Positions 42,601-61,561 of a DNA stretch of 64,000 nucleotides are shown one piece after another. The first letter of the stretch is position 1. Each line of letters begins with the position of its first letter. Position numbers and translations under genes: made by a program. Source of the stretch: Opitutus sp. GAS368 (GTDB lineage: Bacteria; Verrucomicrobiota; Verrucomicrobiia; Opitutales; Opitutaceae); NCBI GenBank assembly GCA_945861645.1, contig CAMAVZ010000004.1, forward strand, positions 18,777 through 82,776, given 5' to 3'. The notes below the pieces were generated by a model. That model was given only the letters and a program-made list of their open reading frames with translations, made no database searches and was not told where the DNA came from.

Positions 42601-42632
42601 ATTGGCCACAAAAAGCGCCGAACGCGCGAAAA
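42601..42632 (+). repeat. Solo copy of the 9-bp-period repeat that flanks the GxxExxY gene
   Basis: ATTGGCCACAAAAAGCGCCGAACGCGCGAAAA. The first 14 bp are identical to 58314-58327. Confidence 0.65.
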
Positions 42633-42665
42633 TTAAGGGCCGGTAGAGAGACGGGCCCTCCCGAT

Positions 42666-55972: not shown

Positions 55973-56830
55973 TTACTGCGGCAAACCGGAGAGCACGATG
56001 AGGACGGTATTTAAGTTGAACAGCCCGTGAGCAATTATTGGAGCACGAATATCGCCAGTGGTTTCGTAAATCAGCGCAAGAATTATGCCCAGCAGCGCGA
56101 GGGGCAGGAAGCTGGCCCAGTTGGCGTGGACTGCCCCAAATAAGGCGCCACTTAAAATGAGAGCGGTGGTGCGACCGAGATGCTGCCGGCAGAAGCGATA
56201 GAGTCCGGCCCGGAAAAGTAATTCTTCGTAGAGTGGGGCGAAGACGCAGGCGACAAGCAGCATTCCTGCGATCACGTAGGGCGATTTAGTTTGGGCGAAA
56301 ATAGCGATGAGATCCTGCGGAGCGGCGGGTAAACCCAAGGCTTCAATCAGTAAGGTCCAAAGCCAATTAGCGGCGACGATGAGTGGCAGGGCGGTTAATA
56401 ATGCCGTGCTCGCGGTGAGGGTCAATTGGCTCCACGAAAGCGTGGGTGTCGGCGTTACCGGGGTCGGGGTGCTAGGGCTGGCCCACGTTGCCTGGATCCA
56501 GCGGAAGAGGCCCCAACCGAGCAGGCCGCCGCCGTCAAAACTGAAGCCGTTCACGCAAAGTTGCAGTCCTTCGCGGTCGACTGATTTTGCGATGATCGTT
56601 TTAAATATACCTTGCGCGGCCAGCTGACAAAACGCCCCCGTGCCCAGGATAAAAAAAATAAATAGGCCAAATTCTGCCAGGGTCAGGGGCCACGGGGGTA
56701 GGGTTTGGGGCCTGAGCCAGCGCGTGCGCTGGGCGGGCTGGGTTACGAGGCGTTGAAAAAAATAAAGACCGGCCAGCAGCAAGGATAGCTCGAAGAGCAC
56801 TAAGATTTGCTGGAGGGGTTCGGTCGGCAT
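55973..56830 (-). CDS. CPBP (CAAX/Abi) family intramembrane glutamic endopeptidase
   Basis: EELLFR, FGAVH and HGLFN motifs; multi-TM. Confidence 0.9.
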   Translation of the reverse strand: MPTEPLQQILVLFELSLLLAGLYFFQRLVTQPAQRTRWLRPQTLPPWPLTLAEFGLFIFFILGTGAFCQLAAQGIFKTIIAKSVDREGLQLCVNGFSFDGGGLLGWGLFRWIQATWASPSTPTPVTPTPTLSWSQLTLTASTALLTALPLIVAANWLWTLLIEALGLPAAPQDLIAIFAQTKSPYVIAGMLLVACVFAPLYEELLFRAGLYRFCRQHLGRTTALILSGALFGAVHANWASFLPLALLGIILALIYETTGDIRAPIIAHGLFNLNTVLIVLSGLPQ

Positions 56831-56960
56831 GGCGTGGCTTTATCTTTGGCGGTCTCGCAGCAAAAAACCAATCAGAAACACCCGATGACCAGCCGCCCGC
56901 TCACGCGATGGCGACTCGCCTTTATTCTCAGCCAATGAAAGTAGCGCTAGCCCCGCGCGC

Positions 56961-58250
56961 TTAAACCATCTTGCCGTTAGCGTAGACGATCTTGCCGGAC
57001 ACGATGGTGGTCTTCACGCAACCGGTCAGTGATTGCTGGTTCCAAGGCGAATTGATCGATTTGCTAAAAGCGCCGTAGGTATTGTAGAGCCACGTCTCAT
57101 TGGGATCGAAGATACAAACATCCGCGACTGCGCCAGCCGCGAGCGTGCCCGCCGGGAGTTTTAGGATATTCGCGGCCTTGCGCGTCATGAGGTCGATGAC
57201 TTGAGTCAGCTTAAATTTACTTTTCCGCACGAGGACATCGAGGCAGATGGGCAAAGCCGTCTCGAGCCCGATAATCCCATTCGGGGCATAATCAAATTCG
57301 CGGTCTTTTTCCTCGGGGGCGTGGGGCGCGTGGTCGGTACCGATGCAGTCAAGCGTCCCGTCTTTCAGGCCGGCGATAATCGCCTTGCGATCTGCTTCCG
57401 TGCGCAACGGCGGGTTCATCTTGAGGTTGGTATCGTAAGTGCCGAGCGCATCCTCGGTCAGCGCAATGTGATGAGGGGTGGCTTCAGCGGTGACGTTGAC
57501 CTTGTCTTGCTTGGCCCGGCGCATGAGTTCGACGGAGTGCGCCGAACTGATGTGTTGCATGTGAATATGGGCGCCGGTGTAGCGCGAGAGGATGATATTG
57601 CGCGCCACGATGATATCTTCGGCGGCGTGCGGCCAACCCTTGAGGCCTAAACGGGTCGACATCACGCCTTCATTCATGACGGCCTTGTCGGTCATCGACT
57701 CATCTTGGCAGTGGTCGAGAATAGTTAGGTCGAACATTTTAGCGTATTCGACGGCGCGGTGCATGAGTTCGTTAGACTGAACGCACAAGCCGTCATCGGT
57801 GAGGGCGACGACCCCGGCTTTTTTTAATGAGCCATGGGGTGCAAGTTGTTGCCCCTTCATCCCCACCGTAATGCAGCCCGTGGCGTAAACATGCACGGGG
57901 GCGTTGGCGGCGGCGGCGTTGATGAGTTGAATGGTCCCGGTATTATCGGCGACGGGGGATGTATTCGGCATGCACACCACCGAGGTGAATCCGCCGGCGG
58001 CAGCGGCTTGAGCGCCCGTCAGGATTGTCTCTTTGTGCGTCTGACCGGGTTCGCGGAAATGCACATGAATATCCACGAGACCAGGACAAACCACGAGTCC
58101 GCGGGCTTCGATGACCTGCGCAGTTTTTTGCTGGGCCGAGGTTAGTGTTTTGACGAATTTACCATCGGCAATGAAGACGTCACTGACTTTATCCCGCTTG
58201 GCCGCAGGGTCGATGACGCGGCCGTTTTTAATGATGAGCAAGGCAGGCAT
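56961..58250 (-). CDS. pyrC: Dihydroorotase (type I)
   Basis: DIHVHFREPG, MPNT, KMNPPLR and TDHAPH. Confidence 0.95.
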   Translation of the reverse strand: MPALLIIKNGRVIDPAAKRDKVSDVFIADGKFVKTLTSAQQKTAQVIEARGLVVCPGLVDIHVHFREPGQTHKETILTGAQAAAAGGFTSVVCMPNTSPVADNTGTIQLINAAAANAPVHVYATGCITVGMKGQQLAPHGSLKKAGVVALTDDGLCVQSNELMHRAVEYAKMFDLTILDHCQDESMTDKAVMNEGVMSTRLGLKGWPHAAEDIIVARNIILSRYTGAHIHMQHISSAHSVELMRRAKQDKVNVTAEATPHHIALTEDALGTYDTNLKMNPPLRTEADRKAIIAGLKDGTLDCIGTDHAPHAPEEKDREFDYAPNGIIGLETALPICLDVLVRKSKFKLTQVIDLMTRKAANILKLPAGTLAAGAVADVCIFDPNETWLYNTYGAFSKSINSPWNQQSLTGCVKTTIVSGKIVYANGKMV

Positions 58251-58316
58251 GTTTAAAAGTTAGCCACAAAAATGGTATTGAAGAAAAGAAGAGGGGGAAG
58301 AAGAGGAATAGGAATT

Positions 58317-58345
58317 GGCCACAAAAAACACCAGAAACACAAAAA
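58317..58345 (+). repeat. Left inverted repeat of the GxxExxY cassette
   Basis: GGCCACAAAAAACACCAGAAACACAAAAA; 27/29 match to the reverse complement of 58746-58774. Confidence 0.9.
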
Positions 58346-58347
58346 AT

Positions 58348-58737
58348 TCAGGCCGTAGGATCGGACATGAGGTATTTTTTAACGTGAAGACGCGAGGAAC
58401 CGAAATTGATAAGCAGGCCGGTTTCGATTCGACCGGAACGCAAATAACCGAGCAGCTGAGCGATGTGTTCCTCTGCGACTGATCGTGCCGCCTTAAGTTC
58501 TACGATCAGTTGGCCGTCAATGAATAGGTCCGCAAAGAATTCGCCGAGCACGGTGCCGTCCTCATCATGTACTGTCAGCGGATACTGTTGCTTAACGTCC
58601 AGACCCTGCTTGCGCAGTCGATGAACGAGGGCGTTTTCGTAAATTTTTTCCATATGCCCGTTTCGATGATAATAGTGAATAGCGAAGCTGGTTTCTCGGA
58701 CTATATCACAGAGTTGATTAATCGGATTTTTTCTCAT
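58348..58737 (-). CDS. GxxExxY protein (PD-(D/E)XK nuclease-like family)
   Basis: 129 aa; GHMEKIY (GxxExxY), ADLFID..LIVELKA, AQLLGYL and GLLINFG. Confidence 0.93.
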   Translation of the reverse strand: MRKNPINQLCDIVRETSFAIHYYHRNGHMEKIYENALVHRLRKQGLDVKQQYPLTVHDEDGTVLGEFFADLFIDGQLIVELKAARSVAEEHIAQLLGYLRSGRIETGLLINFGSSRLHVKKYLMSDPTA

Positions 58738-58745
58738 GGGTCTAC

Positions 58746-58774
58746 TTTTTGTGTTTTTCGTGTTTTTTGTGGCC
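58746..58774 (-). repeat. Right inverted repeat of the GxxExxY cassette
   Basis: TTTTTGTGTTTTTCGTGTTTTTTGTGGCC, 8 nt upstream of the GxxExxY ATG. Confidence 0.9.
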
Positions 58775-58788
58775 CATTGAATTGGAGA

Positions 58789-59736
58789 TCACTCGACCGG
58801 GGCGAGGACGGCTTCAGGTTGGCCGCCGGCGCAGAGGTAGAGAGCAGCCATGCGGACGGCGATGCCGTTGGTGACTTGTCGGAGGATCACGCTGCGGGGC
58901 GAGTCAGCGATATCGCTATCGATTTCAACGCCGCGGTTGATCGGCCCTGGGTGCATAATAATGGCATCCGGTTTAACCCAGCTAGCACGGGTATAATTGA
59001 GGCCAAACATGCTGGTATATTCGCCGATGGAGGGGAAGTGGCTGACACCTTGGCGCTCGTGTTGGATGCGGAGCAGCATGACCACGTCGGCATCTGCGAG
59101 CGCGGTGCGGAGATGATGCGAGACTTTGACGCCCATGGATTCAAACCAGTGGGGAACGAGGGTCGAGGGTCCGACAATTGTCACATCAGCCCCGAGTTTG
59201 GTGAGAGCGTGAATATTGGAGCGGGCTACTCGGCTAAAAAGAATGTCGCCGAGGATGACGACCTTGCGGCCTTTCAGATTCCCCAGTTTCTCGCGCATCG
59301 TGAACACATCAAGCAAGGCTTGCGTTGGGTGTTCGTGCGCACCGTCACCGGCATTGATGACGGGGATATCTAACACCCGGCTCAGGTAGAGTGGGGAACC
59401 ACTCGCCGAGTGGCGCAAGACGATCATATCGGCATTGAGGGCCTGAATATTTTGCGCGGTATCGCGGAGCGTTTCGCCCTTGGTCGTGCTGGAGGCGGCG
59501 GCGTCGAAGGAGATCACGTCGGCGCTCAGAAGTTTAGCCGCCATCTCGAAAGACATGCGGGTGCGGGTGCTGGGCTCGAGAAAAAGATTAACGATCGTCT
59601 TGCCGCGCAGTGCGGGGACTTTCTTGACCTTGCGGTCGAGGATACGGCGGAAGGCGCCGGCCGTGATTAGCAATTGTTCGATCTCAGCGCGGCTGAGCTC
59701 TTCGATCGTCAGGAGATGTTTACGATGCCAAGGCAC
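58789..59736 (-). CDS. pyrB: Aspartate carbamoyltransferase catalytic subunit
   Basis: EPSTRT.SF, KGETL.DT, NAGDG.HEHPTQALLD, SRVARS and MHPGP.NRG. Confidence 0.97.
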   Translation of the reverse strand: MPWHRKHLLTIEELSRAEIEQLLITAGAFRRILDRKVKKVPALRGKTIVNLFLEPSTRTRMSFEMAAKLLSADVISFDAAASSTTKGETLRDTAQNIQALNADMIVLRHSASGSPLYLSRVLDIPVINAGDGAHEHPTQALLDVFTMREKLGNLKGRKVVILGDILFSRVARSNIHALTKLGADVTIVGPSTLVPHWFESMGVKVSHHLRTALADADVVMLLRIQHERQGVSHFPSIGEYTSMFGLNYTRASWVKPDAIIMHPGPINRGVEIDSDIADSPRSVILRQVTNGIAVRMAALYLCAGGQPEAVLAPVE

Positions 59737-60319
59737 GGGCGGAGGAATTTGATTTTTTCTTCACAGGTTTAACTTTTAAAGGGGCCGGAGCAGCCGGAAT
59801 GGTAATGGAATCATGGCTCGGCTGCAGGGCATCGAGGTGGACTTTGACTTTTTCCGTGTCGGTTGCGCTGATTGTGAGGCCGCAGTAACTGGCGGCGATG
59901 GGCAGCCGGCGGCCACCGCGATCCACGAGTACCGCCAGTTCCACTAACGCTGGGCGGCCATGGTCAAATAATTCAGCGAGAGCTGCCTTGATGGTCCGGC
60001 CCGAGTAAAGAACGTCGTCCACGAGAATGACGGTGGCGCCATTAACATCGTGAGGAATGACGGTTGGGGAGAATTCTTTCGGAATGGGATGGCGGCCGAT
60101 GTCATCCCGATGAAACGAGATATCAATCGTGCCGAGTTCGAGCCGCAGGCCGGCTTTTTTTAACCGAGCGGCTAAGCGCTGAGCGAGATTGAGGCCGCCG
60201 TTAGCAATACCCAGGAGCAGTAAATTTTTGGTCTGCTGGTGTCGTTGGGCAATGGCGGTAGCGATTCGACCGATGGCTTGGTCAATGGATTGCGCGTCGT
60301 GCTGCAGGAGAGTGGCCAC
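59720..60319 (-). CDS. pyrR: Bifunctional pyr regulator / uracil phosphoribosyltransferase PyrR
   Basis: DISFHRDD, ILVDDVLYSGRT and VLVDRGGRRLPI. Overlaps the pyrB start. Confidence 0.92.
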   Translation of the reverse strand: MATLLQHDAQSIDQAIGRIATAIAQRHQQTKNLLLLGIANGGLNLAQRLAARLKKAGLRLELGTIDISFHRDDIGRHPIPKEFSPTVIPHDVNGATVILVDDVLYSGRTIKAALAELFDHGRPALVELAVLVDRGGRRLPIAASYCGLTISATDTEKVKVHLDALQPSHDSITIPAAPAPLKVKPVKKKSNSSARALAS

Positions 60320-60404
60320 GAGCCCGAGGTTTTGAGGGGTGGTAGGGGAGGCGTCCAGCGTAAAGCACTATCCCGTTAAACACGGAGCGAATCGATCCCT
60401 GATT

Positions 60405-60810
60405 GCCTCAAAAAGCACAAGAAGACGCAGAATCGGCTAAGGCAGGCGGCGGAAAAGAAGAAATTGGGAAACGGGAGCGCGAAGCTTAGGTTTAAGTTTT
60501 AAGGGGTAAGTTTTAAGCTCGGAGCGGATCGACCGATCGACCAAGGCATTTTTAACCGCGAAAGGCGCGAAATGACGCGAAGGGTCCAGACCTCTAGCCT
60601 CTAGCCTGAAGCCTACGAGCCGCCACAAAAAGCCCAGAGGGCGCAGAATCGGCCAAGGGAGGCGGTGGAAAAGAAGAAATTGAGAAAGTGGAAAATTGGG
60701 AAACGGCAGTCGAAAGCCGGAGATCGGCTCCATAATCCATAACCTCTGACCTCTCACCCAAAGCCTACGAGCCGCCACAAAAAGCCCAGAAGGCGCAGAA
60801 TCGGCTAAGG
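60405..60810. repeat. Mosaic intergenic repeat array: three imperfect direct repeats built from 7-, 8- and 9-bp periodic motifs
   Basis: 60609-60658 and 60761-60810 are 48/50 identical. 60426-60466 and 60642-60682 are 38/41 identical. Confidence 0.88.
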
Positions 60811-60816
60811 TATGGC

Positions 60817-61479
60817 TCAGAGCGGGGTGACGCAATCGGGTGCTTGGTAGCGGGAATTGTTCATCTTCGGGTCGACGCGATGGCTCTGCATCATTTCGCT
60901 GGGGAGCGGACGGCAGAGTCGGCTAAGCTGACTTGGGTCGAGCGGGGCATCGCCCAACCAAGCGGGACCGCTATTGGGGCCTAACATCACGGGCATGCGG
61001 TCATGAATCGGTTGCAGGAGAGAGTTGGGGGTAGTCGTGACGAGGCAAAATGCCGCGGGGCCCTGTTCGCTGGCGGGTGACCATAATCCGGCAAAGAAAA
61101 AACTTTGGCCGGTTTTTAAGCTAAAATAATGCGGCAGGCGCGTGGTGCCTTGTTTTTCCCATTCATAAAAACCATCGGCGAGGACGAGGCAGCGGCGATG
61201 AAGCGTCGCTTCACAAAAGCTACTTTTGCTTAATAAAGTTTCAGCGCGGGCATTGCCCAGTATCAGGGGGCGCTGAGTGGGGGTGCGGGCGGGTAGGGTT
61301 AGGCCGAAGCTCAGTCGCGCCAATTCGGGGGCGCCCTGTTGGGTGATGACTGGCATGAGGCTGGTGAGAGCCACGTTGTAGTGCGGCGTCCAGTCCGCAT
61401 CCGCCGCGGGCAAGGTATCGTTGAGGCCAGCCGGCAAGGCCACGCGGTTAATTTTTTTAAGAGTATAACGAAGGCACAT
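60817..61479 (-). CDS. SOS response-associated peptidase (SRAP, YedK/HMCES-like)
   Basis: N-terminal MC, NARAET, RCLV.ADGFYEW and IHDRMPV. Confidence 0.92.
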   Translation of the reverse strand: MCLRYTLKKINRVALPAGLNDTLPAADADWTPHYNVALTSLMPVITQQGAPELARLSFGLTLPARTPTQRPLILGNARAETLLSKSSFCEATLHRRCLVLADGFYEWEKQGTTRLPHYFSLKTGQSFFFAGLWSPASEQGPAAFCLVTTTPNSLLQPIHDRMPVMLGPNSGPAWLGDAPLDPSQLSRLCRPLPSEMMQSHRVDPKMNNSRYQAPDCVTPL

Positions 61480-61561
61480 GGCTCGCTAAAGCGGGTGGCA
61501 GTTGGGTCACGAGTGTGGCTGGGAAGCACTATAAATCAAGGGGTTGAGCGAAACTATGCTT

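Follow-up and report, generated by a model that had tools for sequence, protein, structure and literature searches.

A putative hairpin cassette between pyrB and pyrC of Opitutus sp. GAS368: a GxxExxY gene and its two inverted arms inherited and exchanged as one unit

Background

Whether a small gene and the inverted repeats that bracket it form a unit of their own, and whether the encoded protein could act on those repeats, are the questions raised by a locus of Opitutus sp. GAS368. The locus lies in a stretch of 64,000 nucleotides (nt) of GenBank assembly GCA_945861645.1 (contig CAMAVZ010000004.1, positions 18,777 to 82,776 of the forward strand), the whole of which is referred to here as the window, and consists of a GxxExxY gene of 129 amino acids (aa) enclosed by two inverted arms between pyrB and pyrC. 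An original prediction, made from the letters of the window, took the repeats and the open reading frame (ORF) to be a self-contained unit without a transposase. The comparison with related genomes confirms a unit that is real, typical of the family, exchanged whole and unstable at orthologous sites. That the unit is a selfish hairpin cassette, with a nuclease acting in the DNA on the phased words of its own arms, is a reading of these sequence comparisons for which the chances appear about evenly balanced.

According to the mechanism proposed, the cassette would comprise a single GxxExxY gene, encoding a small RecB/Cas4-like PD-(D/E)XK nuclease, between two inverted arms, each with a GGCCAC/AACC head followed by three phased 9-nt words. 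The nuclease would recognise, on DNA, the array of words in its own arms, be it as a duplex, a cruciform or a single-strand hairpin, and cut there. Repair or re-joining would then spread or keep the cassette in a homing-like or cut-and-paste manner, arm-to-arm conversion would keep the two arms alike, and gene-less hairpins and solo arms would be the partners or the wrecks of such cutting and repair events. No paper linking a GxxExxY gene to flanking arms was found in the literature on the family and on inverted repeats, supplements not being covered.

Results and discussion

The cassette and its arms

Gene calls and profile matches agree in placing the 129-aa GxxExxY gene between pyrB and pyrC, with pyrR, pyrB, the ORF and pyrC co-directional and all on the minus strand (Table 1). 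A repeat search gave two arms of 33 nt, 91% complementary (30/33) and 400 nt apart, which are the same pair that had been described earlier as 29-bp repeats (27/29) with an AAT extension; the spacing claimed for them was also recovered, with 8 nt between arm and ATG and 2 nt between stop codon and arm. The whole cassette is a 466-bp block (58313-58778), and a gap of 10 nt separates the pyrB stop codon from the upstream arm at its outer end. On the sense strand, the arm consists of AATGGGCCAC followed by three 9-nt units, CCACAAAAA, ACACGAAAA and ACACAAAAA. The 9-bp phasing noticed originally is borne out by the self-match of the arm, which among lags 6-12 is highest at lag 9 (0.58).

Local alignment of arm to arm gives a score of 25.5, with z values of 13.9 to 16.7 against shuffled flanks. 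As a chance control, the same arm test was performed on 1,127 approximate genes from the source genome's 25 largest contigs; that genome is an assembly of 2.3 Mb that is 84% complete and contains one TIGR04256 gene. Values of z≥7 were obtained for three of these genes, one being the cassette gene itself, and scores of at least 20 for two. A scan of the window for self-similarity at periods 7-10 yielded no regions at the first threshold and 13 at a relaxed one, against 0-7 in shuffles; the 13 regions are mostly coding, so that the scan discriminates poorly, and the two cassette arms were the highest-scoring among them. No transposase or integrase was found in or beside the cassette among the neighbouring ORFs or by profile searches, in keeping with the label 'transposase-less', and a search of 56500-61500 against Rfam gave only a chance small nucleolar RNA match (E 0.3). 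Identical or near-identical cassettes are present in freshwater metagenome-assembled genomes (MAGs) titled Opitutia, Opitutaceae or Verrucomicrobia (L164-L166), and 14 DNA sequencing runs contain at least 93% of the sequence words looked for.

Flush arms as a trait of the GxxExxY family

TIGR04256 has gene matches in 33 of 41 related genomes, between 1 and 12 per genome. When GxxExxY loci from 40 relatives were examined, flush inverted arms were detected at z≥7 in 19 of 30 loci, at 4.7-5.5 in three and below 4.5 in eight; arms at z≥7 also flank 15 of 24 further loci of the genus and 36 of 50 testable loci in a set of named MAGs. The absence of a flanking repeat from other GxxExxY genes, which the original prediction had named as a finding against itself, is thus not what these three sets of loci show. 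Since 19 of 30 GxxExxY loci reach z≥7 and only 3 of 1,127 control genes do so, flush inverted arms are not a matter of chance. At the other loci, the arms lie mostly within ~10 nt of the gene and share a common grammar, in which a (T)TnAACC or GGCC head is followed by three units of the form C(A/G)C-N-R-A-R plus 2-3 nt. The words themselves differ from locus to locus (CACGAAG, CACAGAG, CGCAAAG, CACTGAT, CACTAAT, CACGGAG, CACGAAT and CGCGAAG).

Arm similarity tracks protein identity, being 0.81-0.96 between loci with proteins at least 70% identical and 0.30 below 50% identity, and the 30-locus comparison contains no pair of loci with arms more than 0.7 alike and proteins 45% identical or less. 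At non-pyr loci in the genus, proteins that are 61-79% identical to that of the cassette have GCCACAAAA-type arms. The same GCCACAAAA-type arm words accompany proteins 64-79% identical in MAGs of Planctomycetota and Kiritimatiellae, and more distant proteins with other arm words were found in MAGs of Sumerlaeota and Treponema by this cross-phylum search, which used a single protein query and reaches only relatives of ~46% identity or more. As the same words go with related proteins in Planctomycetota and Kiritimatiellae, gene and arms travel together, also between phyla. These comparisons show that the gene and its arms form one unit in inheritance and in exchange, and the claim that repeats and ORF are self-contained is upheld by arms that are typical of the family and by a combination of gene and arms common to several phyla. 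The divergence of word and protein in step makes a recognition code directly testable.

Table 1. Features of the pyr locus in the window and of an armed gene elsewhere in the source genome
Feature	Position	Strand	Evidence or remark
pyrR	59720-60319	minus	NF003549, 7.4e-48
pyrB, upstream neighbour of the cassette	58789-59736	minus	NF002032, 1.9e-121
GxxExxY gene, 129 aa	58348-58737	minus	TIGR04256, 3.8e-31; PF13366, 8.1e-28
pyrC, downstream neighbour of the cassette	56961-58250	minus	TIGR00857, 3.8e-122
Upstream arm, 5' of the ORF on the sense strand	58746-58778	minus	repeat search; inner end 8 nt before ATG
Downstream arm, inverted partner of 58746-58778	58313-58345	minus	inner end 2 nt after stop codon
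Head of a third arm, GCCACAAAAA (58263-58272), then purine-rich filler	58263-58312		between cassette and pyrC start
SOS-response-associated peptidase (SRAP) gene	60817-61479	minus	PF02586, 3.5e-48
Two-module inverted repeat	L002 1222-1297 and 2579-2654		source contig C74

Turnover at the pyrB-pyrC spacer

The spacer between pyrB and pyrC was compared in 30 genomes of the genus. A co-directional GxxExxY cassette occupies eight of the spacers, five with cassettes of the present lineage (84-100% identical) and three with cassettes of a second lineage, whose proteins are 55-59% identical to those of the first and whose arms are of the type GGCCACAAAATGCACAAAAGGCGCAAAA. Gene-less hairpins of 94-345 nt, one of them nested and one triplicated, fill 17 spacers and are built of words such as CCAAAG, CAAGTA, CACGGAT, ACAGAAT and CACTAAT. 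Three spacers are short (8, 17 and 29 nt), and the remaining two have an N run and no clear hairpin, respectively. A within-spacer test, itself weak, recovered an inverted pair in all of the 17 gene-less spacers, at z≥3 in ten and at 1.5-2.9 in seven; for these seven the hairpin reading rests on reading the spacers in comparison, and the best match in L049 is a central palindrome.

On a pyrC tree of the 30 taxa, the state of the spacer changes at least 21 times and the presence of the GxxExxY gene at least five times. Supported sisters differ in spacer state (L070/L071 at 97, L056/L057 at 100 and L044/L045 at 87). Three hairpin-bearing spacers retain the outer flank of the cassette, CAATGGGCC(AC), which points to replacement between cassette and hairpin. 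The spacer comparison shows that the cassette comes and goes at orthologous sites, and a gene fixed at this position with no empty alleles, the other outcome that was to speak against the original prediction, was not encountered. The alignment of junctions proposed there brought out the variation in presence and absence, but neither a clean empty site, which could not be defined at pyrB-pyrC in any of the 30 genomes, nor a target duplication. Likewise, the word GAATTGG does stand near both ends of the cassette (58312-58318 and 58779-58785), as had been noticed, and its reading as a target duplication was rejected, the left copy overlapping the arm and the word not being kept by orthologous cassettes in relatives. 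In G016, the 29-nt spacer was also tried as a clean insertion site and rejected, as it keeps GGCCAC and differs in the pyrB stop and the first pyrC codons; it may represent a secondary loss or a swapped allele.

Some spacers appear to carry traces of earlier states. The block of head and filler next to the cassette (Table 1) recurs inside the duplicated right arm of relative L051 and is probably the remnant of an older arm. In the L051 spacer (genome G049), the right arm is present twice in direct orientation, and its second copy lies at the pyrC start, with CTTCTCT on both sides, a new ATG after it and the old start region, TAAACATGCC, as a relic upstream. A contig assembled from an RNA library (X16 record 13, 58746-59323) comes from a strain ~96% identical in pyrB and continues past 58746 into a cassette of the second lineage (MNEP...), which places both cassette lineages at this site in closely related lake strains.

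Such turnover also bears on a regulatory explanation, in which the arrays would be host sites that bind a global regulator or shape the stability of the pyr mRNA, the ORF being a regulator-like accessory gene. In Geobacter metallireducens, paired tandem hepta- or octanucleotide arrays on opposite strands, one pair of them between proB and proA, do carry the annotation 'predicted global regulator binding sites', according to the available text of PMC2700814. Differences in spacer content between sister genomes fit poorly with a conserved regulatory role, the spacer is empty in 3 of 30 genomes, the words are unrelated in close relatives, and the protein has a complete nuclease active site. We give this explanation very little credence.

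The protein

Scores of the ORF are well above the cut-offs of both TIGR04256 'GxxExxY' (107.9 bits, cut-off 35) and PF13366 PDDEXK_3 (97.6 bits, cut-off 22). The lack of an assigned function for the family, as stated in the original prediction, agrees with a table entry of PMC3424549, where PDDEXK_3 is listed as 'Unknown'. In an alignment of 37 family members from the genus and the order, residues G27, E30, D70, K82, Q94, Y98, N111 and F112 are invariant, and Y33 and E80 are kept in at least 90% of the sequences. The active-site layout is D70, E80-x-K82 and Q94-x3-Y98, so that the GxxExxY motif is followed by D...ExK...QxxxY, a set of residues which we take to be of the RecB/Cas4 type.

The AlphaFold model has a mean confidence (pLDDT, predicted local distance difference test) of 92.8. 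Structure comparison by VIA matched it to the nuclease domain of BpuSI (Z 8.8, root-mean-square deviation 2.5, 93 residues aligned), SwaI (Z 8.0), Cas4 SSO0001 (Z 7.9), Hjc (Z 6.8) and tRNA-splicing endonucleases (Z 5.3-6.0), and Foldseek matched it to AdnA (3e-4) and Cas4 (3.7e-4). A sequence search of solved structures gave no match below E 0.41, and the homodimer prediction score of 0.00 is uninformative in either direction. As profile, active-site residues and model agree, the PD-(D/E)XK nuclease fold claimed earlier, with its alpha-beta-beta-beta-alpha-beta core, is confirmed for the predicted structure, with middling scores that speak for the fold and not for the function. Among the orthologues at the pyr site, the ratio of nonsynonymous to synonymous substitution rates (dN/dS) is 0.04-0.22, with synonymous sites saturated at dN ~0.10, and the protein is therefore under purifying selection.

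Gene-less hairpins and solo arms

The arm word of the cassette occurs at 8 further intergenic places in the source genome, and the wider GCCACAAAAAGC... family has 76 matches there against 15.5 expected. Arm copies away from the gene are mostly solo and stand in one-orientation arrays together with arms of other words, as at 60400-60810 in the window. The number of units varies by 9-nt insertions or deletions between close relatives; the solo arm at C11:16309 (L008 ~1300-1340), for instance, has three units here and two in G044 and G004 (compared with L102, L103 and L104), and in G016 the spacer between the 94%-identical flanks of this site is unrelated. In G052, at least seven gene-less hairpins have cassette-type arms around loops of 17-119 nt that are mutually unrelated. 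As these observations show, gene-less hairpins and solo arms, both with the word of the cassette, exist alongside it.

Searched with the exact pattern, five gene-bearing genomes gave 10, 14, 6, 5 and 26 arms. Five that lack the gene, the close relative G016 among them, gave 1, 0, 0, 1 and 0, and the reversed-pattern control gave 0. With a broader pattern in 65 genomes of the genus, the median was 12.5 arms in the 38 genomes with a G1-like gene and 6 in the 27 without, four gene-bearing genomes having two arms or fewer; the p of 0.006 for this difference overstates it, since related genomes are not independent. Taken together with the divergence of word and protein in step, the moderately higher arm counts in the presence of the gene are an indirect hint of an arm-specific nuclease.

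Half-arms of at least five word families (GCCACAAAAAGC.., CGCGAA.., TTTAAG.., CCTCTAGCC.. and GGAAA..), all in one orientation and with no inverted partners, fill the spacer of ~500 nt upstream of pyrR (60320-60816), which adjoins the SRAP gene. Another solo arm of the wider family, GGCCACAAAAAGCGCCGAACGCGCGAAAATT, is intergenic at 42603-42635. The pyr-site cassette of G052 (L124 97-543) has lost its start region by deletion.

Pairing in DNA or in RNA

A rival explanation places the arms in the transcript. The cassette would be an element resembling an intervening sequence (IVS), with the arm stem in the pyr transcript being cut by RNase III, so that the insert is tolerated and the mRNA of the ORF released; the role of the protein and the spread in DNA would then be separate questions. 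Both the minimum-free-energy and the centroid RNA folds do pair the two arms around the ORF. The fold of the whole region is no better than that of shuffled sequences (z -1.14), and as the ORF dominates the total energy, only the arm pairing was used. No sigma-70-like promoter was seen on the minus strand inside the cassette. Contigs from four RNA libraries, which show neither strand nor ends and may include DNA carry-over, run from the pyr genes into the cassette, bridging pyrC-arm-ORF as well as ORF-arm-pyrB, and one of them spans 58299-58809. Uncovered stretches and contig ends were left uninterpreted, the ends at 58344/58345 and 58746 stemming from other arm copies or from a second-lineage strain. 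Hairpins and cassettes lie between co-directional genes, with the ORF co-oriented in 21 of 30 such cases. The cassettes are thus shown to sit snugly in intergenic spacers of operons and to be read through from the host operon. An RNA-level element would further be in line with the four-helix-bundle family of 23S rRNA IVS, which has the same kind of arms in the relatives (see below), and with the IVS of Coxiella, whose 28-bp terminal stem is reported in PMC4990558 to be cut by RNase III in vitro.

The arms themselves favour DNA. In 43 cassettes of this lineage, arm pairing amounts to 79.9%, against 44-59% with the partner slid. Changes on both sides are seen at 19 of 29 arm positions; shuffling gave a mean of 12.7, with none of 500 shuffles attaining 19, and sliding the partner gave 7-14. 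Mismatches between the arms are of the G-U type in 58 cells and of the A-C type in 75, and in a diverse set in 10 and 19, cells being counted here and not independent events. The lack of a G-U over A-C bias argues for pairing in DNA rather than in sense RNA, and arms that change together without a wobble bias fit complementarity in DNA or arm-to-arm conversion better than a selected sense-RNA stem. In addition, the ORF is antisense to its co-directional neighbours in 9 of 30 cases, and the solo arms in one-orientation arrays cannot form stems. A search for spliced or processed junctions, which the original prediction had proposed, found no joined form among the RNA-library contigs, which cannot show RNA ends. 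On balance, processing of the transcript appears unlikely as the explanation of the cassette.

Other genes in similar arms

The remaining rival grants mobility to the arms. They would be a mobile or recombinogenic entity, driven by a host or trans-acting factor or generated at palindromes, and the GxxExxY gene would be mere cargo with a function of its own, for example in defence or repair. Unrelated loops between identical arms and the abundance of arms in genomes without the gene, both described above, are what it would lead one to expect. It gains further from two sets of genes. One is the non-nuclease family TIGR02436, the four-helix-bundle family of 23S rRNA intervening-sequence ORFs and of Avd of diversity-generating retroelements (PMC10053308, as far as its available text goes), which is absent from the source genome and matched in 33 of 41 relatives, as many as 15 times in a single genome. 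Inverted arrays of 7-8-nt purine-rich words flank 20 of its 29 testable loci (L134-L163), the arms usually lying 25-55 nt upstream of the start. The source genome still holds some arms of the four-helix-bundle type, with 3-19 copies of period-7 patterns against 0-1 in shuffles.

The other is an ordinary 364-aa response-regulator/HisKA/HATPase gene on contig C74 of the source genome, which lies inside a 76-nt, 87% two-module inverted repeat (Table 1). The inner module carries the word of the cassette and flanks the gene on both sides here and on neither side in G058, whose copy is 98% identical; homologues of the gene that are 89-91% identical (G016 and G004) stand in an operon without arms. 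These loci and those of TIGR02436 indicate that arms can exist around other cargo. Against it stand the flush position of the arms around the GxxExxY genes and the small number of genes of the source genome that are flanked in this way (3 of 1,127). The one-to-one coupling of arm word and protein lineage, also across phyla, would not be expected of random cargo. We therefore regard the cargo explanation as improbable, with some standing from the loci just described.

A different kind of repeat, operator-like in appearance, was observed on source contig C18, where AT-rich perfect palindromes of 30-40 nt, CTGTTTGTAATATATTATATTACAAACAG (L216 174-203 and 653-682), stand on either side of a 125-aa ORF that has no Pfam match.

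Points that weigh against a nuclease acting on its own arms

Several observations count against the selfish hairpin cassette with an arm-specific nuclease. Neither cassettes nor gene-less hairpins have a target-site duplication or flanking direct repeats, and the contigs of the four RNA libraries contain no excised form, just as they contain no spliced one. Turnover of the spacer could stem from homologous recombination in the conserved flanking genes, and the cassette at this locus may be old and vertically inherited; in G049 and G052 the protein is 84-86% identical and PyrC 82-87%. As their loops are unrelated, the gene-less hairpins of G052 are not simple copies of one master element, unlike miniature inverted-repeat transposable elements (MITEs) and REPINs. 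Arms also persist without the gene, with at least ten in 9 of the 27 genomes that lack a G1-like gene. The source genome itself holds 16 CGCGAAG-type arms, and its sole GxxExxY gene in the 84%-complete assembly goes with another word. Among the ten genomes checked, G052 has the most exact arms (26) and a gene copy without an ATG, GTG or TTG start. Finally, analogous arms around TIGR02436 genes mean that the layout does not require a nuclease in cis.

Comparison with known systems

The layout comes closest to the systems of repetitive extragenic palindromes and their associated tyrosine transposases (REP/RAYT) and to ORF-bearing rRNA intervening sequences, and fails defining features of both. 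As described for REP/RAYT in the available text of PMC3116915 and PMC3337134, inverted copies of a short repeat stand on either side of a low-copy gene, this repeat also recurs between genes as gene-less hairpin doublets and singlets, gene lineages go with their own repeat sequences, and there is no classical transposon structure. Dispersal of the repeat is likewise seen in the source genome, in the arms and their 8 further copies. In place of the HUH Y1 (IS200/IS605-like) transposase and the REP palindrome of those systems, however, the cassette has a PD-(D/E)XK nuclease and arrays of phased 9-nt words. A further difference is the number of gene copies, one to a dozen per genome in the relatives. 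REPIN doublets replicate with a conserved spacer, whereas the seven hairpins of G052 have unrelated loops. REPIN-RAYT systems are for the most part passed on vertically according to the abstract of the RAREFAN preprint; gene and arms are common to several phyla here.

With the 23S rRNA IVS of Coxiella burnetii (S23p), as presented in the available text of PMC4990558, the cassette has in common a size of ~430-470 bp, a single small ORF in the loop of a terminal inverted-repeat stem of ~28-33 bp, a position inside a transcribed unit and a sporadic distribution, which is taken there as horizontal transfer. The phased inverted arms of the IVS ORF family TIGR02436 in the relatives add to this likeness. 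The IVS differs in occupying helix 25/45 of 23S rRNA instead of a protein-coding operon such as pyrB-pyrC, and its ORF is said to be decaying in Coxiella (PMC4990558), in contrast to the purifying selection on the nuclease; nor do the mismatches of the cassette arms have the wobble bias of RNA.

The arrays of Geobacter and the GGGNATC heptamer repeats of Xanthomonas and Nostoc (PMC4692102) resemble the gene-less arms, with 4-5 tandem units of 7-8 nt paired on opposite strands at variable distance. They too occur between the genes of operons and are transcribed, and are read as regulator sites or G-quadruplexes; the available portions of PMC2700814 and PMC4692102 draw no link to GxxExxY genes, four-helix-bundle genes or mobility.

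A small nuclease gene wedged between conserved genes, with polymorphism of presence and absence, is reminiscent of homing endonuclease genes, and short gene-less copies bounded by inverted repeats are reminiscent of MITEs. The cassette departs from insertion sequences and MITEs in having no target duplication and no transposase-bearing parent, and in its mutually unrelated gene-less loops. Integron cassettes have a single attC and form arrays adjacent to an integrase, in contrast to the two inverted arms and the single unit between housekeeping genes found here.

Possible significance

If the nuclease acts on its own arms, the cassette would be a very small self-contained mobile unit of ~470 bp, with one gene, two 30-nt arms and an enzyme fold not known from REP/RAYT-type systems, and a function could be assigned to the large protein family entered as 'unknown' in the table of PMC3424549. 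Such activity would also explain the intergenic tandem-word hairpins that PMC2700814 and PMC4692102, in their available text, read as regulator sites or quadruplexes, and would provide rRNA intervening sequences that bear an ORF with a shared origin. A still broader and more tentative reading, which we think rather doubtful, unites these elements. Hairpin cassettes would be a cross-phylum class of autonomous elements, in which a RecB/Cas4-like nuclease of ~125 aa reads phased 7-9-nt words as a modular, re-targetable code. A sister class would pair an S23p/Avd-like four-helix bundle with an arm grammar of its own, ORF-bearing 23S rRNA intervening sequences would be the special case that landed in rRNA, and the one-orientation arrays of half-arms in Opitutia would be the fossil record.

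The arms have a bearing on annotation as well. They explain spurious N-terminal extensions such as MNHRDTE... on GxxExxY genes, and short false ORFs in spacers, an example of which is present in the window at 58315-58482.

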